Part shown: in pieces, positions 827 through 19,756 of the stretch
Layout: each line of letters opens with the position of its first letter
Position numbering within the stretch: the first letter of the stretch is position 1
The notes under the pieces: model-generated
Told to the model about the DNA's origin: nothing
Seen by the model: only the letters and a program-made list of their open reading frames with translations
Databases searched by the model: none
Made by a program: the position numbers and the translations under genes
Origin: Acidobacteriota bacterium
GTDB taxonomy: Bacteria > Acidobacteriota > UBA6911 > RPQK01 > JAJDTT01
DNA length: 64,000 nucleotides
Direction: 5' to 3'
Assembly: GCA_965209055.1 (NCBI GenBank)
Contig: OZ242374.1
Location: 3,488,001-3,552,000, forward strand

Positions 827-883
827 GGTCGAGTCGTCACCGCATAATTCCAGGATGTTCAGCTCCGCCATCCGGGACCCGGA

Positions 884-928
884 CTAAACCTGGGATTCCC
901 GCGCAATGCCGAGGAACGGACCGTCCAT
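884..928 (-). CDS. possible 14-aa mini-ORF (MDGPFLGIARESQV) or paralog remnant
   Basis: AGGAGGAGC directly before ATG; 13-nt exact match (914-926 vs 1239-1251) to the KDGPF segment of the 1092-1862 gene. Confidence 0.3.
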   Translation of the reverse strand: MDGPFLGIARESQV

Positions 929-951
929 GCTCCTCCTGTGAAATACGAAAC

Positions 952-1059
952 TCAGTGAACACGAACCCGAGCCAGAACTTCCGTTCGGAACACAACCATC
1001 CTGTTTCTGGTGTCCGTGGAGCCTTCACCGCCAACGTACTGGATAAGGATGGACTTCAT
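952..1059 (-). CDS. 35-aa micro-ORF MKSILIQYVGGEGSTDTRNRMVVFRTEVLARVRVH, homologous to the C-terminus of the upstream gene
   Basis: AAGGAGG 8 nt before ATG; gapless alignment to the last 32 aa of 1092-1862 (15 identities, same stop position), many synonymous differences; below the ORF-track size cutoff. Confidence 0.65.
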   Translation of the reverse strand: MKSILIQYVGGEGSTDTRNRMVVFRTEVLARVRVH

Positions 1060-1091
1060 GTCTTGTTCCTCCTTCAAATCCCTCGCTTGAC

Positions 1092-1862: not shown

Positions 1863-1977
1863 GACACCCTCCTACTTCAACCTTGAGGTCCTTGCTTTTT
1901 CTCTCTAACGTGCGGGTGTTCAGATCTGTGAGACCTGGCTGACGGGAAGGCAACGATGGTGGTTGGAGTTCAGGTGG

Positions 1978-3750: not shown

Positions 3751-3787
3751 CCGTGTCCCCGTTGCCACGTCCGGACCCACAGGAAGG

Positions 3788-5008: not shown

Positions 5009-5022
5009 GGCGATTCTCCCGA

Positions 5023-5766
5023 CTAGTGAAATTTGTCGCTGACGATAAGACCGTCCCGCAGTTGGATCGTGCGCTTGGCGTGAGCCGCGATGGACGCCTC
5101 GTGGGTCACCATGATCAGCGTGATGCCCTGATCCCGGTTCAGATCCACGAGAAAGCGCATGATCTCTTCCGACGTCGCCGAGTCCAGGTTGCCGGTGGGT
5201 TCGTCGGCCAGCAGGATGGCCGGCCGGTTGACCAGGGCCCGGGCCACGGCGACCCGCTGCTGCTGACCGCCCGACAGTTGATTGGGCATGACCTGGGCCT
5301 TCTCCGGGATGCCCACCACTTCCAACGCCTCCTCGATCCTGCGGGCCCGCTCCTGGCGGGGAACGCCGGCGTAGAGCATGGGCGCTTCCACGTTCTCCCA
5401 GATGGAGGTCCGGGGCAGCAGGTTGAAGCTCTGGAAGATGAATCCGATCTTCTGGTTCCGGATGTCCGCCCGCTGGGACGCCGAGAAGGTGGAGACGTCG
5501 ATCCCGTCCAACCGATACTGTCCGCGGGTCGGCCGGTCCAGGCATCCCAACAGGTTCAGCAAGGTCGATTTGCCTGAACCCGAGGCTCCCATGACGGCCA
5601 CGAACTCGCCCGAGACGACCTCCACGGAGACTCCCCTCAGGGCTTCGACCTGGACCTCTCCCAGGTCGTAGATTTTCCAAACGGCTTCAAGAGAAAGGAG
5701 ACTGTCCCCGCCCGGCGGCGCGGAGTCGCGGAGATTCTGCTGCGCTGCGGCCACTTGAACCATCAA
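5023..5766 (-). CDS. MacB/LolD-type ABC ATP-binding protein
   Basis: GASGSGKST, LSGGQQQRVAVARAL, LADEPTGNLD. Confidence 0.93.
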   Translation of the reverse strand: MMVQVAAAQQNLRDSAPPGGDSLLSLEAVWKIYDLGEVQVEALRGVSVEVVSGEFVAVMGASGSGKSTLLNLLGCLDRPTRGQYRLDGIDVSTFSASQRADIRNQKIGFIFQSFNLLPRTSIWENVEAPMLYAGVPRQERARRIEEALEVVGIPEKAQVMPNQLSGGQQQRVAVARALVNRPAILLADEPTGNLDSATSEEIMRFLVDLNRDQGITLIMVTHEASIAAHAKRTIQLRDGLIVSDKFH

Positions 5767-7502
5767 CGGCCTCGACTGCCGGTGCCGCCGCCTCGGCCAC
5801 CGGTCCCACCCCCTCGGGCGCCGCTCCGGTTGCTCGAGCTCCGGTTCCGGCGCGGCCCGAAGGCTCCGCTGAAGGGAGAAGTGCTGCCGCGCTGGACCTG
5901 GCCCGATTCGTCCAGCTTCCAGGTGATGATCTTCTCGTCTTCCTCCAGGTCACTGCGCAATATGGCCGTCTCCCTTCCGTCGGTGATCCCCAGGAGAACG
6001 CGGCGCGGCTGGGGCTCGGCGTTTTCGTCCAGCACCCAGAGCAGACCGGGCCGGGGACGGGTCCGCTCGGCGCGGGGAAACCGGATCTTGGGTCCGGGAC
6101 GGATGCCGTACTGTTCGATGGTGGAGATTCCAATCTCGGCATGGGAGATCTCGTCTCCGCCCCGGCGCGGTCCCCGCCGTTGCCCTCCGGGGCCCCGGCC
6201 TCGTCCGCCCCACGCCGGACGGCCGCCTCCGCCGTCAGCGTCGGCCAAGGCGGCCCGGTCGGCTCCCGGTCCTCGGCCGGGGCCGGCCATGGCGGTGCCG
6301 GGCCCGCCTCCCGAAGGCCGCCGTCCGCCGCCTCGCATCAACGCTCGAATCTCTTCCGGAGATATTCCCTCGGGCCGGAAACGAAGCGCCGAGTTGGCCA
6401 CTTTCAGCACGTCCGCTTCCTGAGCGACCACGAAGTTGACGGTGGCCGTCATGGAGGGCCGCAGCTTCAATTGCGTGTTCTCCACGTCGATGATGACGTT
6501 GTAGACCACCACGTTGGTGGCGCCGCCGCCGCTCTGCGCTCCGCCGGCCGATTCGGTGTTGGGGAGCTTGGAGCTCAAGCGGATCTCGGTAATCTTGCCC
6601 TCGAAGCTCTGTCCCGGAAACGCGTCCACGGCAAAATCGACCTGGGCCATTTCCGAGATGGCGCCGATGTCCGCTTCGTCAATCTGGGCGATGACCTGCA
6701 TCTTCGCCAAGTCGTTGGCGATCAGAAAAAGGACCGGCGCCTGGAAGCTGGCAGCGACGGTCTGGCCGATGTCCACGTTGCGCTCGATGACGACGCCGTC
6801 GATGGGAGAGGTGATGTTGGTGTAGTGCAGGTCGACCTGCGCCATCGTGAGGCTGGCCTTGGCTTGCTGCACGTTGGCGGCGGCTTGATCGTTCTGGGCG
6901 TGGGCCGAACGGATGGAGGCTTCCACTTGGCTGACCTGGGCGTGGTTCTGGCTCAGGCGCGCCTTGGCCTGGTCGAAGGCGGCCTGGGCGTTCTCCAGAT
7001 CGCGGTCCGAGATCACCTCGGCTTCGTAGAGCTCGCGGCTCCGTTTCAGCTCCCGCTCGGCTTCCTGTAGATTGACCTCGCCCACCTCCACGTTGGCCCG
7101 GGCGCTCTCCAATTCGGCCTCCCGGTTGATGAGGTTGGCCGCGGCGCTCTTGACGGCCGCTTCGGCGGTGGCCAGAGAGGCCTTGGCCCGCTCCATCTGG
7201 GCCTCGAAATTGGCCGGGTCGATGATGGCCAGGGTCTGGCCCTTCTTGACCACGCTGTTGAAGTCGGCATGGAGCTCCTGGATCCGTCCCGAGACCTGAC
7301 TTCCCACCTGCACCGTCACCACGGCCTGCAGCAGACCGGTGGAGCTGACGGTTCGCCTCACGTCTCCGCGGCTCACCGGGACGGTCAGGTAGTCTTCGCC
7401 CGGCTGGCTGTCGGAGGGGCCCAGGTAGAGATAGCCGGCCGCGGAAACGGCCAGGACCAGGATGATGGTGACGACGGTGCGGAGGGTGCGCTTTTTTCTC
7501 AC
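5763..7502 (-). CDS. macA: MacA-like periplasmic adaptor (HlyD/RND MFP family) with Gly/Arg-rich insertions
   Basis: VQVGSQVSGRI, coiled coil, ITSPIDGVV, GQTVAASFQAPVLF, IDEADIG; operon with ATPase and permease. Confidence 0.9.
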   Translation of the reverse strand: MRKKRTLRTVVTIILVLAVSAAGYLYLGPSDSQPGEDYLTVPVSRGDVRRTVSSTGLLQAVVTVQVGSQVSGRIQELHADFNSVVKKGQTLAIIDPANFEAQMERAKASLATAEAAVKSAAANLINREAELESARANVEVGEVNLQEAERELKRSRELYEAEVISDRDLENAQAAFDQAKARLSQNHAQVSQVEASIRSAHAQNDQAAANVQQAKASLTMAQVDLHYTNITSPIDGVVIERNVDIGQTVAASFQAPVLFLIANDLAKMQVIAQIDEADIGAISEMAQVDFAVDAFPGQSFEGKITEIRLSSKLPNTESAGGAQSGGGATNVVVYNVIIDVENTQLKLRPSMTATVNFVVAQEADVLKVANSALRFRPEGISPEEIRALMRGGGRRPSGGGPGTAMAGPGRGPGADRAALADADGGGGRPAWGGRGRGPGGQRRGPRRGGDEISHAEIGISTIEQYGIRPGPKIRFPRAERTRPRPGLLWVLDENAEPQPRRVLLGITDGRETAILRSDLEEDEKIITWKLDESGQVQRGSTSPFSGAFGPRRNRSSSNRSGARGGGTGGRGGGTGSRGR

Positions 7503-7569
7503 AAAATGATTATACGCCTGCCGATCTCACATGTTTCAACGAAAAATGAAGAGCTGCCGGAGAACCCGC

Positions 7570-9366
7570 TCAGCGCCCTTCGGAGGTCCCGGATCCGGAC
7601 TGGACAAGGGAGACTTCCACGTAGCGGACGCCCACCGGTTTGTCGCCCCTGTGAAGCACGGCCTGCAGGCGAGTTTCACCCTCATCCAGCAGGACCTGGT
7701 CAAACGTGACTTCGGATGTCTCCGGGTCGAAGGGTTGCATTCTTCGGACCTGTTGAAGCCTCAACTCGGCATTTCCACCACCGGATGCCGGACCGAAGAG
7801 GAACCGGATCCGATAGGCGCCCGCGCGATGGACCGTGATTTCCCAAAACCCCAGGTCGGTGTCTCCCCATCCGTCGGGACCCACCATGCGCCAGTCCTGG
7901 CGAGTGAGGATGACGGGGTCATCGTGGACCGTCCCCACCGCGATCCGGGGAGGAGCGTAGCCTCGAGAGGAGGAAACGTCCTGGAGCCAGTCCGCATAGG
8001 CGGAGCGAAGCCGCCCCACCACCTCGGGACGTCCGCCTGAAATATCCCGTTGTTCTCCCGGGTCGGCCTCCAGATCGTAGAGTTCCAGGGGATAGTCCTC
8101 GAATGTCTCGCCGGCGGGCAGACCGCGCGTGGCGAAGGCCACCGGCTGGACCAGCTTGTACCGCTGCTCGATGGCGGCGAAGTGGCGGAAGGGTTGGGGC
8201 TCGTTCCCCCGGTGGGACTGGATGAAGAGGGTCCGGTCGCCGGGATCCTGGCCGGCGCCGCCGAGCCGGGACATGAGGCTGACTCCGTCGAAGGCAACCC
8301 CGTCGGGAAACGCGATTCCGGCCGCCTCCAGCAGCGTGGGCATCAGGTCGATGTGGGCGGCGATGCGGCCGTCCGTGCCCGGCTCGAGCCGTCCCGGCCA
8401 GCGGAGCAGAAACGGCACCCGGATTCCCCCATCGTAGACGGTCCCCTTGAGTCCTCTGAGTCCGGCGGTGTACCGGCGCGTGGTGGCTCCGTTGTCGGTC
8501 ATGAAGATGAGGATCGTGTTTTTCTCCAGTTCCATCCGCTTCAGGCCGTCCAACAGACGGCCCACGTTGTCGTCGATGTTGGTGATCATGCCGTAGATGC
8601 GGGCATCCTTGTCCTCCAGTCCGGTCTCCAGGTAGGACTGGCGGTAGGGTTCGGGTACGTCGTAGGGGGAATGAGGCGCGTTGGTGGGGATGTAGACGAA
8701 GAAGGGGCTCTCCCGATTCTCCTCGATGAACTCCAGCGCCTCCCGGAAGAAGATGTCGGTGCAGTAGCCCGGGTACGGCTTGGCCTTCCCGTTGTGCTGC
8801 AGGATGGGGTCGAAATAGGAGGTTTCGGGCGGGTCGGAAGGCTGGCCGATGCCGCCGCCCTTGTGGACCACCGACTCCTGGAAGCCCTGGTCCATGGCCC
8901 GGAGTGGATAGTTGTCCCCCAGGTGCCACTTTCCGAAGATCCCGGTCCGGTAGCCCGCCTCCGAGAGAGTCTCGGCCAGGGTGACCTCGTCCGAGTGCAT
9001 CATGGCCCGTCCCACGTAGGTGTCCACCACGCCGGTCCGGTAGTTGTAGCGGCCGGTCATGAGGCTGGCCCGGGTGGGAGCGCAGACGGGAGAGACGTAG
9101 AACCGGGTCAGCTCCACGCTCTCGGTGGCCAGGCGGTCCAGGTGGGGCGTGCGGAGGACATCGTCCCCATGGCTTCCCAACTGGGCCCAGCCCTGGTCGT
9201 CGGTGATGACGAGAATGATGTTGGGCCGTTCCGCTTCCTGAGCCGGAGGCGGTGAACATCCGAGAATCCAACAGCACAACAGAAGCAGCAGCCCGGATCG
9301 GGTGCCGGCCCCGCGGGGGTGCCGGCCGGCTGTGGAGGCGAGTGGAGAATCAACTGTAGTGGACAT
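7570..9366 (-). CDS. arylsulfatase (formylglycine-dependent), probable lipoprotein
   Basis: PNIILVITDDQG, CAPTRASLMTGRY (CxPxR), GKWHLG; ILGC lipobox. Confidence 0.93.
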   Translation of the reverse strand: MSTTVDSPLASTAGRHPRGAGTRSGLLLLLCCWILGCSPPPAQEAERPNIILVITDDQGWAQLGSHGDDVLRTPHLDRLATESVELTRFYVSPVCAPTRASLMTGRYNYRTGVVDTYVGRAMMHSDEVTLAETLSEAGYRTGIFGKWHLGDNYPLRAMDQGFQESVVHKGGGIGQPSDPPETSYFDPILQHNGKAKPYPGYCTDIFFREALEFIEENRESPFFVYIPTNAPHSPYDVPEPYRQSYLETGLEDKDARIYGMITNIDDNVGRLLDGLKRMELEKNTILIFMTDNGATTRRYTAGLRGLKGTVYDGGIRVPFLLRWPGRLEPGTDGRIAAHIDLMPTLLEAAGIAFPDGVAFDGVSLMSRLGGAGQDPGDRTLFIQSHRGNEPQPFRHFAAIEQRYKLVQPVAFATRGLPAGETFEDYPLELYDLEADPGEQRDISGGRPEVVGRLRSAYADWLQDVSSSRGYAPPRIAVGTVHDDPVILTRQDWRMVGPDGWGDTDLGFWEITVHRAGAYRIRFLFGPASGGGNAELRLQQVRRMQPFDPETSEVTFDQVLLDEGETRLQAVLHRGDKPVGVRYVEVSLVQSGSGTSEGR

Positions 9367-11026
9367 GGAGAAGAATCTGCTTGAGGTTCAATTTCCCGCT
9401 GGCCCGGGAACTGCGCTTCGCAACGCCGATCTCGAACCGGTTCATCCCCTGGCGGACCGGATCGGCCGAGAGCTTCCCGGACCGGAAGGGAACCCCCTTT
9501 TCCCCTTCCTTGCGAGGCGGCCGGACGCCTTCGGAATCCAACTCCACGGGCGTCTGATTGAGGGTGATCTCCAAGCGTTCGCCCGGCATCAGGTTGGGGA
9601 CCTCCACTTCGATGTCCACACTCTTCAATCGTCCCGCTTTTTCGGCGGCAGGCAGGTCGTCTCCGACCCGCATCTCGACCGCTGTCCGGTCTTGACCGGG
9701 GCTTTCCGCCAAGTCCACCGGAACCTGGCCCGGATAGCTGGCGATGGAGTAGGGGCCGACGTTGCCCATGACGTCCACCGTCTGGACGTAGTCGATGGCG
9801 AAGGTCTTGTCCTGGTAACGGAGCGCGTCGCTGGAACCGATGTGGTTCAGGACTTCGTAGCCTTCCGCCGCAGGCCGTCCGTAGGAGATCCTGGGCACCC
9901 TGCGGTATTGGAAATTCCAGAGATAGATTCCGTCGGCTCCGGCCCAGAGGATGTTGGAAGCGGCCCCCCGGAAGGCGGCGTCGGAACCGAACATTTGAGT
10001 GCCGCAGTTGATGCAGGGGTAGACGGGGACCTGGTGCCGGTGGCCCAGTCGGACCAGCTCCTCGGCCGGATTGGTGAAGGGGACGTAGCCTCCGCCGATG
10101 AGAAGGCGGTCCACCAGCCCCTCCTTCAGCCAGGTCTCGATGTCGATGCCGATGCGCCGGCAGGCGGCCACGGTTCCCGGGCTGCGGATTCCAAGCATCA
10201 GCGGCCGGCCCCGGCGCTCCGACTCCCGGTCCAGGACCTTGCGGGCCGAGCGGATCAGGTCGGTCATCAGGGGCATCCCTTCTTCCTCCTTGCCCGTCTT
10301 GAAGTACCAGGGCATGCGGAAGAAGTTCAGGTCCACACCCGCCACGTCGTATTTTTCAACCGTGTTGCGGATCCACCAGAGCCGGTCCTCCCGGACCTGG
10401 GGAACGGCGAAATCCAGGCCCGACCAGATGGCGGCCGCCTGGCTGCTGAACACCGGTCCCTTCATGCTCTCGTCCCCCAGCAGCCATTCCGGGTGCTCCA
10501 CCTTGAGGGGATAGATCAGCTTGCCCGCGGGCATGCCGTAGGAGTCGTGGGTGTCGTTCATCCGCAGGGAGCCGAAGAGTTCGACGTCCCGCCCGCGGGC
10601 GGCATCCACCATGACGGGAGTGGGATCTGAGATGACCGGATTCAGGGGTTTGCCGAGCTGTTGAGTCTCCCAGTAGCGGGTCTTTCCTTTGCCGATGGCG
10701 ATAGCCCACATGATGCACCAGGCGATGCTGTCCACGGGGGTCTCCAGGATGGGAACGAAGCGTTGGGCCAGGAAGGCCTCCACGCTCTTTTCGGCGTCGT
10801 CGCTGTAGCAGAGGTCTCCGTCATCGTCCAGGATGACGCGCCGCCGGCGCCAGGCGGCTTCCCGCCTCTGCTCCACGAGCCGGGCCGCCGAATTGCCGCC
10901 GCAGCCGGTCAGCCCTCCGGCAAGAGAGGCGGACAGTGCCAACCCCGTTCCCTGCAGGAACTGCCGGCGGGAGGGAGATTTTAGGATCGAAGTACTCTCG
11001 GGATCGCTGGCGGGCCGGTTTTTCAT
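9350..11026 (-). CDS. Tat-exported lipoprotein, putative glycoside-hydrolase-like TIM barrel (GHL10/DUF187-like)
   Basis: SRRQFL Tat motif, LTGC lipobox; RMNDTHD, LDFAVPQVR, GADGIYLWNF. Confidence 0.65.
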   Translation of the reverse strand: MKNRPASDPESTSILKSPSRRQFLQGTGLALSASLAGGLTGCGGNSAARLVEQRREAAWRRRRVILDDDGDLCYSDDAEKSVEAFLAQRFVPILETPVDSIAWCIMWAIAIGKGKTRYWETQQLGKPLNPVISDPTPVMVDAARGRDVELFGSLRMNDTHDSYGMPAGKLIYPLKVEHPEWLLGDESMKGPVFSSQAAAIWSGLDFAVPQVREDRLWWIRNTVEKYDVAGVDLNFFRMPWYFKTGKEEEGMPLMTDLIRSARKVLDRESERRGRPLMLGIRSPGTVAACRRIGIDIETWLKEGLVDRLLIGGGYVPFTNPAEELVRLGHRHQVPVYPCINCGTQMFGSDAAFRGAASNILWAGADGIYLWNFQYRRVPRISYGRPAAEGYEVLNHIGSSDALRYQDKTFAIDYVQTVDVMGNVGPYSIASYPGQVPVDLAESPGQDRTAVEMRVGDDLPAAEKAGRLKSVDIEVEVPNLMPGERLEITLNQTPVELDSEGVRPPRKEGEKGVPFRSGKLSADPVRQGMNRFEIGVAKRSSRASGKLNLKQILLHVHYS

Positions 11027-11104
11027 GGTCCAGAGAATAGCACCTCGAAGCCCCTGCGGCATGACGTTGATCAGTTCCCGAAGGGGCGGCCTATAATTGC
11101 TTCG

Positions 11105-11998
11105 GTGCGTCTCGTCTTCGGTATTTCATTGCTGTCGTTTCTGGTGGGGACCCAGCCCGAGTCCGCCCGGGAGCTGACGGAGAAATCGATCCGGGAACTG
11201 CGGCTGATGGTGGTGGAGTTCATCAACCAGGATCGGCTAAAGGCCTCGGCCCGGCCAGTGGTGTATTCCGAACCCCTCTCCCTGCTGGCCGACGAGCATT
11301 GCCGGGAGATGCTGCGGGAAGGCTACACCAGCCACTGGAACCGGGCCGGCTGGAAGCCATACATGCGCTATTCCCAGGGCGGGGTCACCGATCATACCTC
11401 CGAAAACATCGCCAGCATGAACAGCACCGGCTTCGAGGTGAGCTTCGACTCCGTCAAGGCCGAATTGACCGCGCGCCACGAGAGCCTCATCGGTGAGGAA
11501 CCGCCGTACGACCAGCACCGCCAAAACATCCTGGACCCTCACCATACCCATGTCGGAATCGGGGTGGCCTACAGCAGGGCGGGCCTGCGGATGATCCAGA
11601 TCTTCGCCCGGCGGTACGTGAGCCTGGAGCCCATTCCCGCAAGGCAGGGACCCTCCGCCAGCGTTCAACTGAAGGGCAAGTTGCTCGTGCCCGGATACGA
11701 TCTCCAGGCGATCTCCGTCTTCTACGAACCCCTGCCGGAAGAGATGTCACTGGCGCAGTTGATGGGGACGTATTCCTATGCTTTGCCCGCTGACGAGAAG
11801 ATCTACAGGACCCGTCTGCCCTCGATCATGCGCTACGCCGACGGCACCCGGGGATCGGTGGACGTCCGGGGCCGGTCCTTCTCCCAGACCATCTCCTTCC
11901 CCTCCCGGAAAGGGGTCTACACCCTGGTCGTCTGGCTCGAGAAAGAAAACGAGGTTCGGGGCTTCACGGCCACCAACGCCACCGTCTTCGTGGAGTGA
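11105..11998 (+). CDS. CAP/SCP domain protein, secreted
   Basis: INQDR, SHWN...PYMRY, ENIA, HRQNILDPHHTHVGIGV. Confidence 0.85.
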   Translation: MRLVFGISLLSFLVGTQPESARELTEKSIRELRLMVVEFINQDRLKASARPVVYSEPLSLLADEHCREMLREGYTSHWNRAGWKPYMRYSQGGVTDHTSENIASMNSTGFEVSFDSVKAELTARHESLIGEEPPYDQHRQNILDPHHTHVGIGVAYSRAGLRMIQIFARRYVSLEPIPARQGPSASVQLKGKLLVPGYDLQAISVFYEPLPEEMSLAQLMGTYSYALPADEKIYRTRLPSIMRYADGTRGSVDVRGRSFSQTISFPSRKGVYTLVVWLEKENEVRGFTATNATVFVE

Positions 11999-12087
11999 GA
12001 CGGAGAACTTCCTAGTTCGTTGAGATCACTCTAGATAGGCGCCTCGTGCACTCGGTAGGTTCCAATCGGACCTCATTCCGAAACTTC

Positions 12088-12129
12088 CCAACAAATCTGT
12101 TGCCAACAAATCCGTTGGTAATGTATGAT
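12088..12129 (+). promoter_or_regulatory. sigma70-like promoter overlapped by a tandem palindromic operator
   Basis: CCAACAAATCTGTTG (12088-12102) + CCAACAAATCCGTTG (12103-12117); TTGCCA 12100-12105, 18 nt, TATGAT 12124-12129. Confidence 0.6.
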
Positions 12130-12153
12130 GGGTTTTGTAGAGGAACCAGATAG

Positions 12154-13419
12154 GAAAAACTCAAGAAGGCAGGTGGCAACTGGGTCGACGGAGATCGATT
12201 CTTCGATCGAGACGTCGAACTTGAGGCATTGAGTGAGCGTGTCAAAGAGGGAACCCACACTCTGCTGACGGCGCAGCGCCGGATGGGTAAGACGAGCCTA
12301 GTAAGGGAACTGTTACGCCAACTGGCGGATGAAGGCAGCTTCGAGACCATCTTTGTCGATCTGGAAGGCGCTAACGACTCCGCTGACGCCATCGCCGAGA
12401 TTGCAATCCAGACACGATCGGTTCGGACTGTTTGGGGTCGTATCAAGTCCGGTTTCGCGAACTTCCTGGAAGACTTTGGTGATCGAATCGAAGCCTTGGA
12501 AGTAGCCGACGTGAAGGTCAAGTTGCGCGCCGGAATCGATGCCGGAAACTGGCGCCAGCGAGGTGATCAAATCTTCACGGCACTTGCATTGAGCGAGAAA
12601 CCAGTTGTGTTGGCCATCGATGAGTTGCCGATCCTAATCAACAGACTACTCAAGGGTCAGGACTACCGGATCACGCCGGACCGGCGGGACGCGGCAGACC
12701 AGTTTTTGAGTTGGCTCCGCAAGAATGGGCAGACCCATCGGGGGCGGGTATCCATGATCGTCTCGGGCAGCGTTGGTCTTGAACCCGTTCTCAAACAAGC
12801 CGGCCTCAGCGCGCAGGCAAATATTTTTTCGCCGTTCGACTTGAGACCTTGGAGCCGGGAAATTTCCATCAAATGCCTGGGATCGCTGGCGTATACCTAC
12901 GGCTTGGACCTATCTCGTGAGGTCCGATCCGAGATGTGCCACCGTCTCCGATGCTGTGTTCCCCACCACGTACAGCAGTTTTTCGACCATCTTCATGAAC
13001 ATTTGCGCCGGAATAAAAGACTCGCAGCGACACTCGCCGATGTCGGCCATGTGTATGAGCAGGATCTTCTCAGCGTCCGTGGCCAAATCGATCTGGAGCA
13101 CTATGAGAGCCGGCTGAGGATGATTCTGGGAACTGAAAGCTACAAGACCGCACTCAGTCTGTTGACGGAGACAGCGGTAGGCGATGCTCTACTGAGGTGG
13201 AAATCGATCGAGAAGTATCGCGGCGGTCATTCGTCAGGTTCTGGGGATTCGGTGACAATCGAAGATGTTCTGTACACCTTGGAGCATGACGGTTATCTGG
13301 CCGCCGACTCCGATGGTTATCGGTTTGTTTCGGGTCTGCTTGAAGACTGGTGGAAGGCCCGACACGGTGCGTATTTCATTCCGATCGACAGGCGAAGATC
13401 GAGACAAGAGGCGAAGTGA
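12154..13419 (+). CDS. P-loop ATPase (archaeal-ATPase/STAND-like); expected start codon disrupted
   Basis: Walker A AQRRMGKTS, Walker B VVLAIDE; frame open from 12154 (EKLKKAGGNWVDGDRFFDR) after TAG 12151-12153; first in-frame start is TTG 12229. Confidence 0.8.
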   Translation, partial: EKLKKAGGNWVDGDRFFDRDVELEALSERVKEGTHTLLTAQRRMGKTSLVRELLRQLADEGSFETIFVDLEGANDSADAIAEIAIQTRSVRTVWGRIKSGFANFLEDFGDRIEALEVADVKVKLRAGIDAGNWRQRGDQIFTALALSEKPVVLAIDELPILINRLLKGQDYRITPDRRDAADQFLSWLRKNGQTHRGRVSMIVSGSVGLEPVLKQAGLSAQANIFSPFDLRPWSREISIKCLGSLAYTYGLDLSREVRSEMCHRLRCCVPHHVQQFFDHLHEHLRRNKRLAATLADVGHVYEQDLLSVRGQIDLEHYESRLRMILGTESYKTALSLLTETAVGDALLRWKSIEKYRGGHSSGSGDSVTIEDVLYTLEHDGYLAADSDGYRFVSGLLEDWWKARHGAYFIPIDRRRSRQEAK

Positions 13420-15617
13420 TGAAGGCAATCACCAAGAAATACAATCCGGGGTTTTTGACCGACGACGAACTCTTGCAATCGTTCTGTGTACGGACCGGCG
13501 AATTTGAATCGATCGTCGAAACTCTAAGCGAGAGCACCGGAAATTCGAATCCACACATCATCGTCATCGGTCCACGTGGCAGCGGTAAGACTCACCTGTT
13601 GCTTCGAGTCGCGGTCGAGATCCGGCGAAACCCCAAGTTGGAGAGGTTTTTCCCCGTCGTATTCGCCGAGGAGAGCTACGAGGTTACGACTTGCGGCGAA
13701 TTCTGGTTGGAATGCCTTGGCCGTCTTGCGGACCAGGCACCGTCCACGGATGGTGTGGATCTGCACCGTACCTACGAAGACCTGAGATCCAGTCCGGATG
13801 ATTTCATTTTGTCGGAGCGTTGTCTCGGGGTGCTCTTGGATTTCGCCGACCGTCACAGCCAACGTCTGGTGCTCCTGGTCGAGAATCTGAACATGTTATT
13901 CGCGGACATGCTCGACCCGGACGCGGGATGGCGGTTGAGAAAGACGTTACAAACGGAACCACGAATTCTCTTGCTCGGAAGCGCAACCAGCCGATTCAAG
14001 GAGATCGACCATCCCGAAAATGCTCTCTACGACCTCTTTCGGATCATCACCCTTAATCCACTCAATACCAGTGAGTGCGCAACGCTTTGGAAGACCGTTT
14101 CCGGACGATCTGCTGAGTTGCGGACCATCAGGCCGCTGCAAATTCTCACCGGCGGCAGCCCCCGATTGCTTACCATCGTCTCTTTTTTCGGGGCGGGGCA
14201 ATCATTCCGTGAATTGATGGAAAACTTACTAGCACTGGTCGACGATCACACGGAGTACTTCAAGAGTCATCTCGACTCACTGCCGGTCCAGGAACGACGG
14301 GTCTACCTGGCACTCGCGAGGCTTTGGAAGCCGTCGCTTTCCAGGGAAATCGCGGATTTGGCGCGTCTGGACACGAACCGGTGCAGCGCTTTGCTCGCAC
14401 GTCTTCTACAACGTGGTGCGGTAACCGTTGAAGGAGGAACTGCCCGGCGCAAACAATACTATCTGACCGAGCGTCTATACAACATCTACTACTTGCTGCG
14501 TCGTGGTTCCGGAGCAGCGTCCATGGTGGAAGCACTCATTCAATTTATGGCCTCGTACTATTCGCCTGATGAATTATTGGAATTAGGCAAGCGAATTGCG
14601 GCTGAGACAGGAGTTGGTGACCAGCGAGCAAGGGAACTCGCTCGGGCGGCATTCGCAAATCTACTTGACTTACCGTTGCTAACGTCATATCGGGAGTCAC
14701 TCCTTACCGACGAAGATGTTGTCAGCGCATTTGGGTCAATGAGCACCCCGGAAATAGCACCACAAATCGCCTATGCGCTTATAGCAAAAGCTGCCAAATT
14801 AGGTCCGACAGAACCGGCACTTACCATTTATGACGATGTAATCGATCGATTCGGTTCCTCTGAAACGTCTGAGCTCTTGCAAGTAGTGCAGTTCGCTTAC
14901 ATTCTAAAGGCGGCTATTCTCATTGGAATTGGTCGAAATAGTAAGGCGGTTACGGTCTGCGACGAGATTGTGAACCGATTCCGAACCCGTAGGGATCCAG
15001 TATCCTTAATGTTATTGGCGATGGCATTTTTCAGCAAAGGAAGCGCGTTGCAATTGATTGGCGACGCTCCAAACGCGGTCCATGCGTTTGATCAAGCACT
15101 AAATCGGCTTAGTACAGCCGAAGCAAAGGAAATTAAGGGCCTTAGTCCAATTGTTGCCAATACAATCCTGGGCAAGGGGTATGCGTATCATAAGAATAAC
15201 CAACCAGGAGATGCTCTTGCCGCTTTCAACGAGGTCGCAACGCGATTCGGTGGAACCGACGATCCGCAGACCGCTAAAGTGGTGGCAACTGCCGTCGTAA
15301 GGAAAATTATTCTCCAATGTGAAATGAATCGCATTGTCAGCCAAAATGAGGTCGTGATGCTGCTGGAGCACCTACCGGCGATGGATTATCTTCCCGTAGG
15401 ATGTGTGCCTCTACTGATTCAATTTAGCGTCATGTCTGGCCCAGACCGTGCTCTTGAGTTGATCCAAGTGTCTCGGGCCTCTGATCGGTTGTTGCCCCTG
15501 GTCACCGCTTTAGAACAAATCCTCGGTCGCTCGCCTCGGGTAGCTCGGGAAGTTGCAGAGATTGCGGCTGATATACGGCAGGAACTAGAAGAAAAGATAG
15601 CTCTCGCCCGACACTGA
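13419..15617 (+). CDS. STAND-like ATPase + winged HTH + TPR-like repeats
   Basis: TGATG coupling to upstream gene; GPRGSGKT, LVLLVEN, GGSPR; wHTH-like SREIADLARLDTNRCSALLARL; four A-x3-(Y/F/C)D-x3-RF-type helical repeats. Confidence 0.85.
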   Translation: MKAITKKYNPGFLTDDELLQSFCVRTGEFESIVETLSESTGNSNPHIIVIGPRGSGKTHLLLRVAVEIRRNPKLERFFPVVFAEESYEVTTCGEFWLECLGRLADQAPSTDGVDLHRTYEDLRSSPDDFILSERCLGVLLDFADRHSQRLVLLVENLNMLFADMLDPDAGWRLRKTLQTEPRILLLGSATSRFKEIDHPENALYDLFRIITLNPLNTSECATLWKTVSGRSAELRTIRPLQILTGGSPRLLTIVSFFGAGQSFRELMENLLALVDDHTEYFKSHLDSLPVQERRVYLALARLWKPSLSREIADLARLDTNRCSALLARLLQRGAVTVEGGTARRKQYYLTERLYNIYYLLRRGSGAASMVEALIQFMASYYSPDELLELGKRIAAETGVGDQRARELARAAFANLLDLPLLTSYRESLLTDEDVVSAFGSMSTPEIAPQIAYALIAKAAKLGPTEPALTIYDDVIDRFGSSETSELLQVVQFAYILKAAILIGIGRNSKAVTVCDEIVNRFRTRRDPVSLMLLAMAFFSKGSALQLIGDAPNAVHAFDQALNRLSTAEAKEIKGLSPIVANTILGKGYAYHKNNQPGDALAAFNEVATRFGGTDDPQTAKVVATAVVRKIILQCEMNRIVSQNEVVMLLEHLPAMDYLPVGCVPLLIQFSVMSGPDRALELIQVSRASDRLLPLVTALEQILGRSPRVAREVAEIAADIRQELEEKIALARH

Positions 15618-15715
15618 TCAGGTTGCACCAGTATAGAAACGCACCGCCGGGGATTCGAAATCACTGTCGGCAGGCGTTTGTCACGACACGAGAAGCAAGT
15701 CGCCTCGGCATCGTC

Positions 15716-17188
15716 TCAGGCCAGAGCGCCCTCGATCACCTGGCCCCGCTGGCCGGTGAGGCGCTCTTCCAGGCCGTGGTAGAAGTAGGTCAGCTTGGTG
15801 TGGTCCAGGCCCATCAGGTGCAGCACCGTGGCGTGCAGGTCGGAGACGTGGTAGGGGTCTTCCACCGCCTCGAACCCAAGCTCGTCGGTGGCTCCGATGG
15901 CCTGACCGCCCTTGACGCCGGCCCCGGCCAGCCACATGGAGAAGCCGAGCCAGTTGTGGTCGCGGCCCGGTTTCCCGACGCCCTCGCTGGTGGGGGTCCG
16001 GCCGAACTCGCCGCCCCAGATCAGGAGGGTCTCCTCCCAGAGTCCGGTCCGCTTCAGGTCTTCGATCAGGGCGGCCATGGGCTGGTCGGTCTCGTAGCCG
16101 TGGAGCGAGTGATTCTTGATGCAGTCCACGTGGCCGTCCCAGGTTTCGGGGCCGTGCCCGCCGCCCGAGTAGAGCTGGACGAAGCGGACGCCCTTCTCGA
16201 TGAGCCGCCGCGCGATGAGGCACTTGCGGCCGTAGTCGGCGGTGAGCCGGTTGTTGAGCCCGTACATCTCCCGGGTCTGCTCACTCTCCTGTTCGACGTC
16301 CACCACGTCGGCGGCCGTGGTCTGCATCCGGTACGCCAACTCGTAGGAGTGGATCCGGGCGGCCAGCTCCGACTCCTGCTCCCGGCCCTTCAGGTGCTTC
16401 CGATTCAACCGTTGCAACAGGTTCAGGGAGTGGCGCTGGGTCCGTTCGCTGACGTCCTCCGGCGTCGCCAGGTTCAGGAGCGGATTGCCCTTGCTTCGGA
16501 AGAGGGTTCCCTGGTAGGCGGCCGGCATGAAACCGGCGGTCCAGTTGGAGGTCCCGCCGATGGGTCCGCCCCGGGGATCGGTCATGACGACGAAGCTGGG
16601 CAGATCGTTGCCCAGTGTGCCCAGACCGTAGCTGAGCCACGAGCCCAGGGAGGGTCTCCCGATGATGACGTTGCCCGTGTTCATCTGGATGTTTCCCGAG
16701 GCGTGCGCCGCCGTGTCGGTGTACAGGGAGCGAATCACGCAGAGGTCGTCGGCAAAGCGGGAGACGTGGGGGTAGACGCTGCTGATTTCCAGGCCGCTCT
16801 GGCCGTGCTTCTTGAACTCGAACGGAGATTGCATCAGGTAGCCGATGGGACGGTTGTTGGACCCCACCTTCACCTTGCCCTTGTAGGGGGTACCGTTGTA
16901 CTTGGTCAGCGCGGGCTTGGGGTCGAACAGGTCCACGTGGCTGGGCCCGCCGTTCATGAAGAAGAAAATGACGTGCTTGGCGCGCGTCGGGAAGTGGGGC
17001 AGCTTGGGAGCCAGGAGCTCCGGCGGGGCGCCGTCGACTGAAGCCGCGTTCAGTCGTCCGAAAAAGCCGTCGGTAGAGAGGAGGTCGATGAGGGCCAACC
17101 CGGCGAATCCTCCGCCCGTCTCCCAGAGGAACTCCCGCCGCGTCCGGCCACAGGGTGGATTGTTGCGTGTGAACCGCTTCGTCTGCAT
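15716..17188 (-). CDS. DUF1501 family protein with Tat signal
   Basis: TRREFL; AKHVIFFFMNGGPSHVDLFDPKP; GEFGRTP; GRDHN. Confidence 0.93.
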   Translation of the reverse strand: MQTKRFTRNNPPCGRTRREFLWETGGGFAGLALIDLLSTDGFFGRLNAASVDGAPPELLAPKLPHFPTRAKHVIFFFMNGGPSHVDLFDPKPALTKYNGTPYKGKVKVGSNNRPIGYLMQSPFEFKKHGQSGLEISSVYPHVSRFADDLCVIRSLYTDTAAHASGNIQMNTGNVIIGRPSLGSWLSYGLGTLGNDLPSFVVMTDPRGGPIGGTSNWTAGFMPAAYQGTLFRSKGNPLLNLATPEDVSERTQRHSLNLLQRLNRKHLKGREQESELAARIHSYELAYRMQTTAADVVDVEQESEQTREMYGLNNRLTADYGRKCLIARRLIEKGVRFVQLYSGGGHGPETWDGHVDCIKNHSLHGYETDQPMAALIEDLKRTGLWEETLLIWGGEFGRTPTSEGVGKPGRDHNWLGFSMWLAGAGVKGGQAIGATDELGFEAVEDPYHVSDLHATVLHLMGLDHTKLTYFYHGLEERLTGQRGQVIEGALA

Positions 17189-17227
17189 CGTTGTTCTCCC
17201 GGCAGGGCCGATTCCTACGGTGCCTCC

Positions 17228-19756
17228 TCAGTTGGGGTAGACGAATTCATTGAGATTGAAGACCACCCGGCAGAGTTGAACCAGGCTCTTCTCCCGGGCC
17301 ACGAGCCGGTTCCGGTTCCGGGCGCTTACCTCCCAGAGGTGGGCCTCGGTCTCCTGGTTCAGGAAGTCCACCATTTCCCGGTGTTCGTCGGGAGTCGGTC
17401 CGCGGGCGAGCGCCAGGCGATACACGAGATCCACCTGCTGGGCCAGGTCAGGGCCCGCCTCCTCCAGGACTCTGCGAGCCAGGTGGAAGGCCTGCTCGTT
17501 GGCGAAGTCTCCGTTGAACAGCGTCAGGGCCTGGGGAGCGATGCTGGTCACCGGCCGCTGGGCGGAACTCCGGGTCGTGTCGCACAGGTCCAGGACCTCC
17601 AGCATGGGGATGAGCATGGAGCGCTTGATGAAGGCGTAGACGGTCCTGCGGGAGGCCTCCCGGGGATCGGACGTATACCAGATCTTGTCCGGATCCGGAT
17701 GCCCTTCCAGCGCGGCCTCGGGTATGGGCGGCACCATGCTGGGGCCGTACATCTTGCGATTGAGCTGTCCGCTGGCCGCCAGCATCGAGTCCCGGATGGC
17801 CTCTGCCTCGAGCCTTCGATAGTGGGCCCGCCAGAGGAAGCGGTTTTCCGGGTCCGCCTCGAGGTACCCGGCCACTGGCTTCTTGCCCATGCGGTACGTG
17901 TTGCTGGTCATGATCAAGGTGTGGAGCTTCTTGAAGGACCAGCCCTCTTCGATGAAACGGCTGGCCAGCCAGTCCAGAAGCTGGGGATGGCTGGGCCGGT
18001 CTCCCATACTGCCGAAGTCGCCGGCGCTGCGGACCAGTCCCTGGCCCAGGTGCTGCTGCCAGACCCGGTTGACCAGGACCCGGGCGGTCAGGGGGTTTTC
18101 CGGGCTGGCGATCCAGCGGGCCAGGGCCAGTCTCCGCCCACTGCTGTTTCCCTTGGCGGAAAACGGGGGCTGGGAGCTGACCAGGGCGGCGGGAAGAGCC
18201 GGGACAGCCACGTCGCCGGGACTGGCGGCCCGGCCTCGCATCAACACGTGGACCACCTCCGGCGGCTTCGACTCGTAGAGGTAGTAGCCGCGGTCCAGAT
18301 CGGGAACGGATCGGCGAACCCGGGCGATCTCGGCTTCCAACCCGGCGATCCGGCCCACCAGCTCGGGAGGGAGGGCCTCGGCCGTCTTGGCGATCATCTC
18401 CGTGGAGTATTGCCTGGCCAGTTCCTTCTGCTCTTCCGTTCTCTTCCTGATGTCTTCCAGCAGGGCAGCCACGGCCTTTGCGGGGAGTCCGCTTTGACCC
18501 GAGCGGAGCCGGTCGATCCGGAAGTCCTCCCGCAGCTTGTCGATCTTGGCTTCCAGCTCCTTGATGCGCTCGTCCCTCTCGGACTGCCGGGTCATTTGGG
18601 TGTGATCCCCCACCGGCAGGCTGACCTCCCGGCGTCCGGTCTGGGACCGGCGGAGGCCGTTGAAGAGGGCGACCATTCCGTAATAGTCCTGCTGGGTAAG
18701 GGGATCGAACTTGTGGTCGTGGCAGCGGGCGCAGCCCATGGTCAGTCCCAGGAAGGCCTCCGAGGTGGTTCGAACCACGTCGTCCAATTGATCGAAGCGG
18801 TCCTGGTCGAAGTCGGCCGGTTCGTCGTCCCAGGGGCCCAGCCGGTTGAAGCCCATGGCGACATGGGTCTCGGCGGTGGCGTCCTCCAGCTCGTCTCCGG
18901 CCAGTTGCTCCAGGATGAACCGGTCGTAGGGCTTGTCCTGGTTCAGGGACCGGATCACGTAATCCCGGTACTTCCAGACCTCCGGTTTGGTGGCGTCCCG
19001 CTCGTAACCGTTGGTTTCGGCGTAGCGGACCACGTCCAGCCAGTGCCGGCCCCAGCGCTCCCCGTATCCCGGGCGGTCCAGGAGTTCTTCGATCAGGCGG
19101 TCGAACGCTTCCGGGCTGGCCTTTTTCAGGAACTCGTGCTGTTCCTGCGGAGTCGGCGGAAGGCCGACGAGGTCGAGGTGCATGCGCCGCAACAGCGCTT
19201 CGTCTCCCGCCGGAGGAGATGGTTTCCAACCGCGGCCTTCCAACCTGGCCAGGACGAAGGCGTCGATGGGGTTCCGAACCCATTCCGTGTTCTTCACCAC
19301 AGGGACCGGAGGCGAGGTCGGCGGTTGAAACGACCAGTGGTCCTTCGCTTTCGCCAGCGGACTCGAATCGGCCGATTCGGCGTATTCGGCGCCGGCGTCG
19401 ATCCAGGCCCGGAGCAGGCCGATCTCTTCGGGAGTGAGCCGATCTCCGGTCTTGGGCATGAGCCGGTCAGGGTCCAGACCGGCCACGGTCTGAATCAGCA
19501 GACTCCGGGCGCTGTCGCCGGGGATGACCGAGGGGAGGCCCGAGTCGCCTCCTTTCAGAGCGTGGCCGCGTTCGTCGAGCCGCAGGCCGTTCATCTGGAC
19601 GGTCGCTCCGTGGCACGCGTAGCAACGGTCCCTGAGAATCGGCTCGACCTGCTCGGAGAAGTCCACGCCGGCAGGAGCCGGGGGAGGGAGGTCCCGGCTT
19701 CCGGCCACAGCGGCGGTGACGGAAAAGATCAGCGACACGCCGAGCCAGTGGAACAT
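17228..19756 (-). CDS. PSD1/PSCyt2 (DUF1549/DUF1553) planctomycete cytochrome c protein
   Basis: CYACH and CARCHDHKFDP haem motifs, YGERWGRHWLDVVRYAET, NPLTARVLVNRVWQ; canonical neighbour of DUF1501. Confidence 0.93.
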   Translation of the reverse strand: MFHWLGVSLIFSVTAAVAGSRDLPPPAPAGVDFSEQVEPILRDRCYACHGATVQMNGLRLDERGHALKGGDSGLPSVIPGDSARSLLIQTVAGLDPDRLMPKTGDRLTPEEIGLLRAWIDAGAEYAESADSSPLAKAKDHWSFQPPTSPPVPVVKNTEWVRNPIDAFVLARLEGRGWKPSPPAGDEALLRRMHLDLVGLPPTPQEQHEFLKKASPEAFDRLIEELLDRPGYGERWGRHWLDVVRYAETNGYERDATKPEVWKYRDYVIRSLNQDKPYDRFILEQLAGDELEDATAETHVAMGFNRLGPWDDEPADFDQDRFDQLDDVVRTTSEAFLGLTMGCARCHDHKFDPLTQQDYYGMVALFNGLRRSQTGRREVSLPVGDHTQMTRQSERDERIKELEAKIDKLREDFRIDRLRSGQSGLPAKAVAALLEDIRKRTEEQKELARQYSTEMIAKTAEALPPELVGRIAGLEAEIARVRRSVPDLDRGYYLYESKPPEVVHVLMRGRAASPGDVAVPALPAALVSSQPPFSAKGNSSGRRLALARWIASPENPLTARVLVNRVWQQHLGQGLVRSAGDFGSMGDRPSHPQLLDWLASRFIEEGWSFKKLHTLIMTSNTYRMGKKPVAGYLEADPENRFLWRAHYRRLEAEAIRDSMLAASGQLNRKMYGPSMVPPIPEAALEGHPDPDKIWYTSDPREASRRTVYAFIKRSMLIPMLEVLDLCDTTRSSAQRPVTSIAPQALTLFNGDFANEQAFHLARRVLEEAGPDLAQQVDLVYRLALARGPTPDEHREMVDFLNQETEAHLWEVSARNRNRLVAREKSLVQLCRVVFNLNEFVYPN

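Follow-up and report, generated by a model that had tools for sequence, protein, structure and literature searches.

What might a pair of coupled P-loop NTPase genes with no recognizable effector do for the cell that carries it? The question is raised by two genes, here called A and B, in the genome of an Acidobacteriota bacterium (assembly GCA_965209055.1), where they lie within the 64,000 nucleotides of contig OZ242374.1 that were analyzed (positions 3,488,001 to 3,552,000, hereafter the window, whose own coordinates are used below). A preliminary description, made by a model from the letters of the DNA, had proposed the two genes as a candidate uncharacterized defence or conflict system. 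Our analysis suggests that A and B form a self-contained and horizontally mobile two-gene operon of an uncharacterized family, and that this operon is most likely, at roughly even odds (a probability of about 0.5), an effector-less NLR-like (STAND) conflict or anti-phage system. The defence role is a candidate one, unproven and drawn from the genomic context, and we file the pair as an NLR-like candidate defence system in which a second AAA+ protein takes the place of the effector. The main elements of the locus are as follows.

12000..15715, forward strand: variable slot that contains the entire cassette, bounded by the stop codons of a CAP-domain gene (11998) and a DUF1501 gene (15716)
12154..13419, forward strand: gene A, putative ORC/Cdc6-like AAA+ NTPase with a C-terminal winged helix (Pfam, AlphaFold2, Foldseek); 421 codons open
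13417..13421, forward strand: TGATG overlap of the stop codon of A and the start codon of B, the ATG of B at 13419 sharing its A with the TGA at 13417-13419
13419..15617, forward strand: gene B, putative STAND-type NTPase of 732 amino acids in which a winged helix and about five helical repeats precede a conserved C-terminal domain; reading frame intact

By Pfam, the flanking genes encode a CAP-domain protein (11105-11998, forward strand) and a DUF1501 protein (15716-17188, reverse strand). The guanine-plus-cytosine (GC) content is 0.47-0.57 over 11750-15500 as against 0.62-0.69 on both sides, so that the low-GC cassette between GC-rich genes and the two P-loop NTPase genes coupled by TGATG are both present as first described. 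Each gene occurs in a single copy in the genome, which is one contig of 6.08 Mb.

Is the pair a unit? A scan of one genome per species yielded 205 stretches encoding relatives of A, from which 80 loci were kept. In 79 of them A is directly followed by B, a pairing far in excess of chance; the exception (L041) is a truncated A beside an rve-type transposase, and the distance from the stop codon of A to the start codon of B ranges from -7 to +21 nucleotides across the 79 loci, with one artefactual outlier. Likewise, in an even sample of 301 genomes from the phylum, A was found in 11 genomes, from 7 of 185 genera, and the N-terminal 400 residues of B in 12; all 14 places with A have B within about 150 nucleotides and 14 of the 15 places with B have A, pairs of only 29-49% identity included. 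The co-occurrence of the two genes, implied by their description as a sensor and helper pair, is thus borne out. Furthermore, the identities of A and of the N-terminal part of B to the window copies covary over the 79 loci (Pearson r 0.81, Spearman 0.41). Word-based searches returned more than 2263 relatives of A, mostly of about 417 amino acids and 60-95% identical, and more than 3369 relatives of B, mostly of 1000-1280 amino acids. Clustering of the flanking open reading frames (ORFs) gave no third conserved gene, the next cluster being present in 9 of 81 sources, which is consistent with synteny among close kin, and the finding that proteins of 738-2105 amino acids include no relative of A argues weakly against fused forms of A.

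The hosts of the 80 loci belong to the Acidobacteriota, Chloroflexota/Dehalococcoidia, Latescibacterota, Binatia, Gemmatimonadota, Alpha- and Gammaproteobacteria, Spirochaetia, Opitutales and others, with A being 57-95% identical across the loci. This wide spread at such identities, together with the low GC content, argues for recent horizontal exchange. The pair also occurs on plasmids from Clostridium (an isolate from bovine faeces), Segatella and Methylomonas, and distant pairs, with A only 23-24% identical and the two genes overlapping, are found on plasmids of Clostridium estertheticum (L098, pCF003-70, 5950-12328) and Segatella copri (L099, DSM 18205, 725-8030). Seven of the 20 listed public runs that hold part of the stretch are labelled as sponge metagenomes (X5, X6, X8, X9, X13, X17 and X18), and many hosts of the 80 loci, known from metagenome-assembled genomes, belong to phyla that we take to be typical of sponges. 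Taken together, these data suggest community-wide horizontal exchange among sponge-associated bacteria, the sponge setting being in part presumed. A near-identical pair in about ten phyla, many of them apparently sponge-associated, would be a clear case of such exchange of an accessory module.

The same distribution could be taken to mean that the pair serves the interaction with the sponge, B being a repeat-rich, "eukaryote-like" protein with which the symbionts act on their animal host. Such a role would fit the near-identical sequences in the sponge metagenome runs, the many related loci in presumably sponge-typical phyla (with a habitat that is mostly unstated in the titles of the records) and the TPR-like repeats of B. 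We nevertheless consider it very improbable, because B is a STAND NTPase of cytoplasmic type, in which no sign of a signal peptide was seen by inspection, with no predictor applied, because the pair is also found on the Clostridium, Segatella and Methylomonas plasmids, and because forms of B without repeats exist.

Where the pair is inserted gives a first indication of what it may do. In alignments with two cassette-free genomes of the genus (G003 and G008), homology stops exactly at both flanking stop codons, so that the whole of 12000-15715 appears to be a replaceable slot. No attachment-site repeats were seen in these slot-border alignments, a dedicated repeat search not having been made, and an Rfam scan of 11000-17000 gave nothing at E-values up to 0.1. 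In the other genomes of the genus the slot is occupied as follows.

G001: the cassette, 94% identical
G002: the cassette, 86% identical
G003 (L093, 617-2419): HEC-01A and HEC-01B (E 5e-163 and 3e-76)
G008: an ATPase of the G003 kind, its frame apparently cut short (judged by eye)
G004 (L096, 629-4067): a complete HEC-03 (HEC-03B, E 2e-216; HEC-03A, E 4e-65) and HEC-01A (E 2e-138)
G004, further: pieces of the DUF1501 gene, fragments of A and a short B
G007 (L097, 615-15386): an HEC-03B-type ATPase and Cas6, Cas3, Cas8, Cas7, Cas5 and Cas4-Cas1 (type I CRISPR-Cas)
G007, further: two tyrosine integrases, the last 29 codons of A and a short B

The slot is a defence hotspot within the genus. HEC-01 and HEC-03 resemble the cassette in being two-gene systems and alternative occupants of the same slot, and HEC-03, an ABC ATPase with a PIN partner, protects against phages in a manner that requires both genes, according to the preprint that named these two systems (10.1101/2024.01.29.577857). 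As described there, HEC-01, HEC-03, PARIS and Septu consist of ABC-type ATPases with TOPRIM, PIN or HNH partners (10.1101/2024.01.29.577857), whereas A and B are both AAA+/STAND NTPases and no nuclease was found in either. The plasmid-borne pairs are accompanied by DUF3800, a GIY-YIG nuclease and an integrase, or by a WYL regulator (E 1.5e-30), DUF262 and IS21; the DUF262 protein is GmrSD-like and matches HEC-06 (E 7e-18).

The tally of neighbourhoods outside the genus took in 78 loci (L003 and L004, which are of the same genus, were excluded) and the 675 ORFs that lie there no more than 6 kb from the pair. These ORFs fell into 509 clusters, 246 of which had a member within 2.5 kb, and the 149 nearest were scanned, up to a total of 50,000 residues, after ORFs of more than 900 amino acids had been dropped; the tally has no control regions, and only the 25 commonest families among the matches were listed. 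Among the matches listed, the 149 non-redundant nearest ORFs (from 68 loci) include two PtuA proteins, two to three ABC-ATPases of the mad3/AriA-like defence type and three PIN proteins, along with three rve proteins, two resolvases and two IS110 transposases, and also three sulfatases, three MFS transporters, CoA-transferases and molybdenum enzymes.

If the pair is a defence system, which of the two proteins would recognize the threat? The features of B point to a sensor.

13569..13592, forward strand: Walker A motif of B, GPRGSGKT (G51, R53, G54, S55, G56, K57 and T58 invariant)
13866..13886, forward strand: Walker B region of B, LVLLVEN (within LVLLVENLN), with Glu-Asn in place of the usual acidic pair
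14148..14168, forward strand: GxP-type motif of B, TGGSPRL (within TGGSPRLL; T244, G245, G246, P248, R249 and L250 invariant)
14289..14462, forward strand: putative winged-helix region at residues 291-348 of B (TrmB hit in Pfam with E 0.002, which is below the cut-off), highly conserved in sequence
14709..15332, forward strand: array of helical, TPR-like repeats at residues 431-638 of B, with about five units that each span roughly 40 amino acids (homolog alignment and confident hairpins in the AlphaFold2 model)
15333..15614, forward strand: C-terminal domain of B (residues 639-732), conserved throughout the aligned homologs, repeat-free forms among them; confidence score (pLDDT) of about 90

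In Pfam, B matches AAA_16 (PF13191) with 33.2 bits (cut-off 32.6) and the ORC-CDC6-like family with 30.6 bits (cut-off 27). The preliminary description had read its motifs as a canonical Walker A and a degenerate Walker B (VEN). Both are present, but the second is no sign of local degeneration, since all 35 aligned homologs have the same residues at V154, E155, N156, N158 and M159. The B homolog on the Clostridium estertheticum plasmid, which is only 22% identical and has a long TPR tail, has VEN as well, whereas the Segatella B-like protein, with 298 amino acids and no repeats, has a canonical Asp-Glu Walker B (LLIDEAH). Thus, the Glu-Asn pair appears to be a trait of the repeat-bearing relatives that were compared. 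The motif TGGSPRL is named GxP-type here after what we take to be the usage of the STAND/NB-ARC literature. It could be recovered together with the winged helix and the TPR-like repeats, as had been described, the last two as a TrmB-type hit to residues 291-348 and as weak TPR hits. The TPR hits to B in Pfam are all below the cut-off, and many Pfam TPR families appear in the precomputed family lists of its homologs. For the C-terminal domain, an EAD7 adaptor was considered and dropped, as the single hit (E 0.02) is below the cut-off and EAD7 is absent from the families of 120 homologs.

Across the family, the first 385 residues of B are strongly conserved and are followed by helical units of about 38 amino acids and then by the conserved domain of about 90 residues. 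The number of repeats varies from none to about 17 units, giving lengths of B from 458 to 1572 amino acids; repeat-free forms are found in several Dehalococcoidia, in a gammaproteobacterium and in three genomes of the same genus. An exhaustive search with residues 1-400 returned 4222 representative clusters at E-values up to 0.001, and 1447 at E-values up to 1e-30. The 150 best representatives have their NTPase at the N-terminus, except for a few N-truncated fragments and one mis-called start; this indicates that the family is effector-less at its N-terminal end. The mis-called start concerns a relative (P0301) with an apparent N-terminal extension of 177 residues, which we rejected as a fused domain because it is of low complexity and is followed by the usual start motif.

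The AlphaFold2 model of B has a mean pLDDT of 73 and a predicted template modelling score (pTM) of 0.55. Its best Foldseek match is 6mfv, followed by SAMD9, Avs3, NLRP14, NLRP9, NOD2, Avs4 and Apaf-1, all with low TM-scores, as is to be expected of a multi-domain chain. These matches agree with the STAND and helical-repeat sensor architecture that had been proposed. The protein in 6mfv, a STAND-TPR protein of the PH0952 type, shares with B the order of NTPase, winged helix and TPR and matches it over the whole length (E 1.8e-7), at 12% identity and with TM-scores of 0.26-0.30; we know of no partner gene or function for it. Avs3 and Avs4 (PDB 8dgc and 8dgf; Foldseek E 7e-5 and 5e-4) likewise have a STAND NTPase core followed by a helical-repeat sensor, both of which B appears to possess, with the C-terminal TPR-like part resting on the helical repeats in the AlphaFold2 model. 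Avs genes are also accessory and horizontally spread, like the cassette. In Avs proteins, an effector, for example a nuclease or a protease, stands at the N-terminus. B differs from them in that its NTPase begins at about residue 45 with no effector in front of it, in that it is always paired with a second AAA+ protein, and in that the TM-scores to Avs are only 0.20-0.24. No Avs model was among the PADLOC hits at E-values up to 0.1.

What, then, is the partner? The main features of A are the following.

12271..12294, forward strand: Walker A motif of A, AQRRMGKT; one M/I change is the only variation among 36 aligned homologs
12604..12624, forward strand: Walker B motif of A, VVLAIDE (within VVLAIDELP; D156 and E157 invariant)
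13258..13362, forward strand: putative C-terminal winged-helix region of A, residues 369-403 (a helix, two strands and a helix in the AlphaFold2 model)

The Walker A motif of A had been called atypical, which is mistaken: the classical pattern is [AG]-x4-G-K-[ST], AQRRMGKT fits it, and the surrounding stretch HTLLTAQRR-M/I-GKTS is invariant in the 36 homologs. The Walker B motif is intact (IDE), as first described, and lies within PVVLAIDELPIL; the motif is invariant in the same alignment, as are HDGY, F391, S393 and WW in the winged-helix region. In Pfam, A matches AAA_22 with 28.1 bits (cut-off 27) and sits in the neighbourhood of AAA_22, AAA_16 and ATPase_2. Its score for ATPase_2 (PF01637), 28.6 bits (E 1.6e-6), is under the gathering cut-off of 33.2 bits; PF01637 is present in the precomputed family lists of many A homologs.

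The AlphaFold2 model of A (mean pLDDT 78, pTM 0.76) matches 2qen and 2fna at the first two ranks in Foldseek, with a probability of 1.00, E-values of 6e-11 and 4e-10 and TM-scores by target of 0.68 and 0.61, followed by Cdc6/Orc1 proteins and, further down, CED-4. The match to 2qen, 2fna and Cdc6/Orc1 is full-length, and in a sequence search against the PDB 2qen was the sole match below an E-value of 0.01 (E 0.005). All of these proteins end in a winged helix. On the basis of the model, A is predicted to have an ORC/Cdc6-like AAA+ fold with a C-terminal winged helix. With the archaeal ATPase_2 proteins (2qen, PABY2304; 2fna, SSO1545) and Orc1/Cdc6 it shares an N-terminal motif, Walker A, Walker B, a lid and the C-terminal winged helix, although its score for PF01637 is below the cut-off and the identity is 18%. 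We know of no function for the archaeal ATPase_2 proteins either. Orc1/Cdc6 proteins bind replication origins, whereas A resides in an accessory operon.

Does A, or its partner, have a DNA site of its own? Immediately upstream of A lie two features.

12089..12117, no strand: tandem operator of two CAAC-N6-GTTG palindromes (12089-12102 and 12104-12117), 15 nucleotides apart
12100..12129, forward strand: promoter-like site, TTGCCA, 18 nucleotides, TATGAT, overlapping the second operator site; 10 of 12 consensus matches

The operator reads CAACAAATCTGTTG-C-CAACAAATCCGTTG at 12089-12117, and its two sites are the only strict CAAC-N6-GTTG sites in the window; the tandem pattern, with one mismatch or less, is found once in the 6.08-Mb genome. 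Within 150 nucleotides upstream of A, at least one strict site is present in 74 of the 80 loci and at least two in 47, and successive sites are 15 nucleotides apart in 51 of 57 cases. The density of sites is 10.2 per kb upstream of A and 0.017 per kb elsewhere in the same loci (27 sites in 1.61 Mb). Between loci, the dyad arms CAAC and GTTG are kept and the inner six bases vary, with two to about five copies. Five diverged pairs (29-49% identity; L101-L105) all have strict or near-strict sites upstream, in three cases as clear tandem arrays and in one as a single loose site, and the Clostridium plasmid pair is preceded by the similar palindrome AACAAATTTGTT. The promoter-like site is the sole hit in 11900-15800, which is weak on its own, as shuffled sequences average 2.3 hits; in many loci, TTGACA stands just before or inside the operator repeats. 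The conserved tandem operator upstream of A is a new finding that the preliminary description had missed, as it had the ORC/Cdc6-like fold of A and the probable inactivity of the local copy, and with its dyads overlapping the promoter-like site the operon looks autorepressed. A second, diverged A-B pair (42-49% identical) was seen in three genomes (G001:C1:3871159-3873608, G004:C1:1834466-1836930 and G135:C1:270337-272762), two of which have a clear tandem operator of their own at this pair; the genome of the window has the single pair.

Such an operator invites another explanation, namely that the pair is a split regulator akin to MalT and the LAL activators, in which B uses its repeats to sense a small molecule or a protein and, together with A, switches transcription at CAAC-N6-GTTG, so that its role would be accessory regulation rather than immunity. 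MalT and the LAL proteins are STAND NTPases with a helical-repeat sensor that act on tandem DNA sites. A division of this activity between A and B would agree with the winged helices predicted in both, with the overlap of operator and promoter-like site and with the lack of a detectable effector domain; moreover, the protein-atlas clusters near the N-terminal part of B include labels of MarR-type regulators, which is a lead only. However, the tandem operator occurs once in the genome and precedes only its own operon, so that no regulon is visible, no neighbouring target gene is conserved, and the distribution is patchy and bound to a hotspot. Furthermore, MalT and the LAL activators carry a C-terminal LuxR-type DNA-binding domain in the same polypeptide, whereas Pfam gave no LuxR/GerE hit in A or B at E-values up to 0.1, leaving the pair without an output domain of this type. 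A purely regulatory role therefore seems unlikely to us.

Is the copy in the window active? Its first codons suggest otherwise.

12150..12160, forward strand: lesion at the start of A, ATAGGAAAAAC in the window as against ATATGAAAAAAC in relatives; the ATG is gone and one base is missing

The frame of A opens at 12154, after a TAG at 12151-12153, closes with the TGA at 13417-13419 and has no in-frame ATG, GTG or TTG before the TTG at 12229. A Shine-Dalgarno-like GAGGA lies at 12140-12144. In the alignment, G001 and G002 read GAGGAACCA-(G/A)TT-ATG-AAA-(AAA/GGA)-CTC, that is, GAGGA, seven bases and then ATG, whereas the window reads GAGGAACCAGATAGGAAAAACTC, which is one base shorter and has A-GG-AAA-AA instead of the ATG-AAA-AAA of its relatives. 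The remark in the preliminary description that the start would have to be repaired was thus correct. Contigs from three other metagenome runs of two other studies (X5, X7 and X8; one of them is 97.5% identical over the whole 3.9 kb) have the intact ATG-AAA-AAA form, with T for G at 12153 and an extra A behind 12154. The contigs of run X1 show zero differences from the window, both at the start of A and over the matched stretch. X1 is perhaps the source sample of the window, so that this match is no independent proof, although it reduces the likelihood of a simple assembly error. Translation from the TTG at 12229 would cost the protein about 25 residues, among them the motif NWVDGDRFFDR, which is mostly invariant or nearly so. 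Apart from its start, A is intact (95% identical to its counterpart in G001, with no internal stop), as is all of B, which indicates that the lesion is recent.

The damage is not confined to this genome. Among the six genomes of the genus that carry the cassette, A is intact only in G001 and is broken or lost in the other five.

Window: start and frame lost
G002: stop at about codon 125 (L085, 6068-7363)
G005: frameshift near codon 63 (L095, 900-2160)
G004: fragments (L096, 5171-5691)
G007: near-complete deletion, the last 29 codons left (L097, 18150-18236)

The frame of B is open in all six genomes, and its first 400 residues are free of stops in five; in G007, an open frame of 551 amino acids spans both matches to B. 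In G004, G005 and G007, B is short and lacks the repeat array. The chance that five independent random hits would all fall in A (1263 nucleotides) rather than in B (2199 nucleotides) is about 0.007, a figure that treats large deletions as point events. Outside the genus, A and B are usually whole in the 78 loci: A has premature stops in L040 and L068 and is truncated in L041, and the defects in B amount to one stop (L071) and one split frame (L042). We read this pattern as a recent and repeated inactivation of the module via A in this lineage, and the repeated loss of A would fit a role of A as the costly, active arm. In the genome of the window the module is probably switched off, judging from its sequence, since two neighbouring changes have cost A both its ATG and its frame, and the translation of B is coupled to that of A.

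One may go further and regard the copy in this genome as a remnant in decay that no longer has a function, whatever the role of the family in other genomes. An A that lacks a start codon and whose frame is cut off from the upstream ATGs, the identical form in the contigs of run X1 and the other lesions in A within the genus all point in this direction, and we hold it to be rather probable. Against it stand the intact remainder of A and the whole of B, and an A truncated at the TTG at 12229, or B alone, could retain some activity. It is in any case compatible with a defence role of the family rather than opposed to it. For the present, the copy in this genome should be annotated as probably inactive.

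The pattern of decay also bears on the idea that the pair is a selfish addiction module, similar to a toxin and its antitoxin, in which one ATPase inhibits growth, the other restrains it and the operon is autorepressed at the palindromes. The tight two-gene operon with its overlapping stop and start codons, the tandem palindromes of autoregulatory appearance, the horizontal spread without mobility genes of its own and the occurrence on plasmids are all what one would expect of such a module. However, A and B are both large NTPases and unlike known antitoxins, and A is broken or lost in five of the six genomes of the genus while B is open; A is thus not an indispensable antidote, and B alone is tolerated, though perhaps poorly translated. 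We consider an addiction module quite unlikely, with the proviso that its boundary to abortive-infection defence is blurred.

Returning to the pair as an NLR-like defence system, we can outline how it might work. STAND and NLR-type receptors are a common theme of bacterial, plant and animal immunity. In the scheme that we favor, B would be the sensor, with its STAND NTPase, a helical-repeat array of variable length and the conserved C-terminal domain, and its Glu-Asn Walker B would probably make it a slow, switch-like ATPase. One winged helix, most likely that of A, may bind the tandem CAAC-N6-GTTG operator and keep the operon repressed. A trigger would bind to the repeats of B, whereupon B and A might assemble into a mixed oligomer, and the output might be the ATP-driven DNA binding of A, or its use of ATP, halting replication or growth; this part, from trigger to output, is the weakest of the scheme. 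For a contact between A and residues 1-400 of B, structure prediction gave an interface score (ipSAE) of 0.47, and none of three controls scored above 0.00; at least 63% of the contacts are shared between the runs, and the pLDDT of the partner is 74 or higher. The mark for a contact was reached by 58 of 80 solved complexes and by 2 of 110 mismatched pairs, and at scores of 0.60 or under by only 7 of those 80 complexes and by both mismatches. The model thus lends weak support to the possibility that A contacts this part of B, and the complementary catalytic motifs suggested in the preliminary description are a conjecture.

A bolder version of the scheme would make the pair a new type of immunity, in which an effector-less, NLR-like B loads or unleashes A, a repressor seated on CAAC-N6-GTTG iterons; once activated, A would clamp DNA or burn ATP and so stop the replication of the phage or the host; and the two genes, which stay together even at 24-30% identity, would form a unit of ancient origin whose recent sweep through the many sponge-dwelling bacterial phyla was by horizontal transfer. 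We regard this version as doubtful.

Several observations weigh against a defence role. No effector domain (nuclease, TIR, protease or other) was found in A or B with Pfam, PADLOC or NCBIfam, which, like the N-terminal position of the NTPase in the best 150 representatives, agrees with the absence of a visible effector in the preliminary description. Likewise, no PADLOC model (of 2023) and no NCBIfam model (of June 2026) scored above its threshold for A or B, and NCBIfam came near no cut-off; the pair therefore matches no named system, as had been stated. Phage records (50,697 in number) contained no A, and none of 32 pattern matches in viral contigs could be confirmed. The mean column identity of A across phyla is 70%, which is unusually conserved for an immune gene. 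The predicted contact of A and B is weak, and residues 269-364 of B, around the putative winged helix, are poorly modelled, with a pLDDT below 50. The immediate neighbours of the pair outside the genus are mixed and form no clear defence island, in a tally with no control set, so that a defence-island neighbourhood, which had been named as a check, is seen in the slot of the genus, with HEC-01, HEC-03 and type I CRISPR-Cas, and not clearly beyond it. HEC-01 itself, an ABC ATPase with a TOPRIM partner, gave no protection against the phages tested, according to the same preprint (10.1101/2024.01.29.577857).

Among the named systems, MADS was considered and rejected. The partial P-loop matches to its mad8 model (25.5 bits and E 2e-6 for A; 22.2 bits and E 2e-5 for B) cover the first 75 and 127 of the 314 profile positions, respectively, and no other conserved neighbour is present. 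Faint PADLOC hits to PDC-S01 and PDC-S27 were likewise rejected as membership. The neighbours of A and B in the protein atlas are labelled only as "ATP-binding protein", and no description of the A-B pair was found in open-access papers and bioRxiv.

To our knowledge, the bacterial STAND receptors studied so far act via an enzymatic effector that is either fused or recruited. Here, a large family has a receptor-like B that is always coupled to an ORC/Cdc6-like ATPase, with no recognizable effector, and should the pair indeed serve in defence, it would have to do so through a new kind of output. The conserved operator provides a ready experimental handle on the family.

Two minor observations concern the surroundings of the slot. 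Upstream, a reverse-strand ORF of 570 amino acids (9350-11062) matches no Pfam family at E-values up to 1e-5; it adjoins a sulfatase gene and has a twin-arginine-like N-terminus (SRRQFLQGTGLALSASLAGG). Downstream, the DUF1501 gene and its PSCyt1/PSCyt2/PSD1 neighbour (15716-19756) have many paralogs in this genome and its relatives, with numerous DNA matches of 64-74% identity to 15716-17188 elsewhere in these genomes, and in G004 the slot contains duplicated pieces of the DUF1501 gene.

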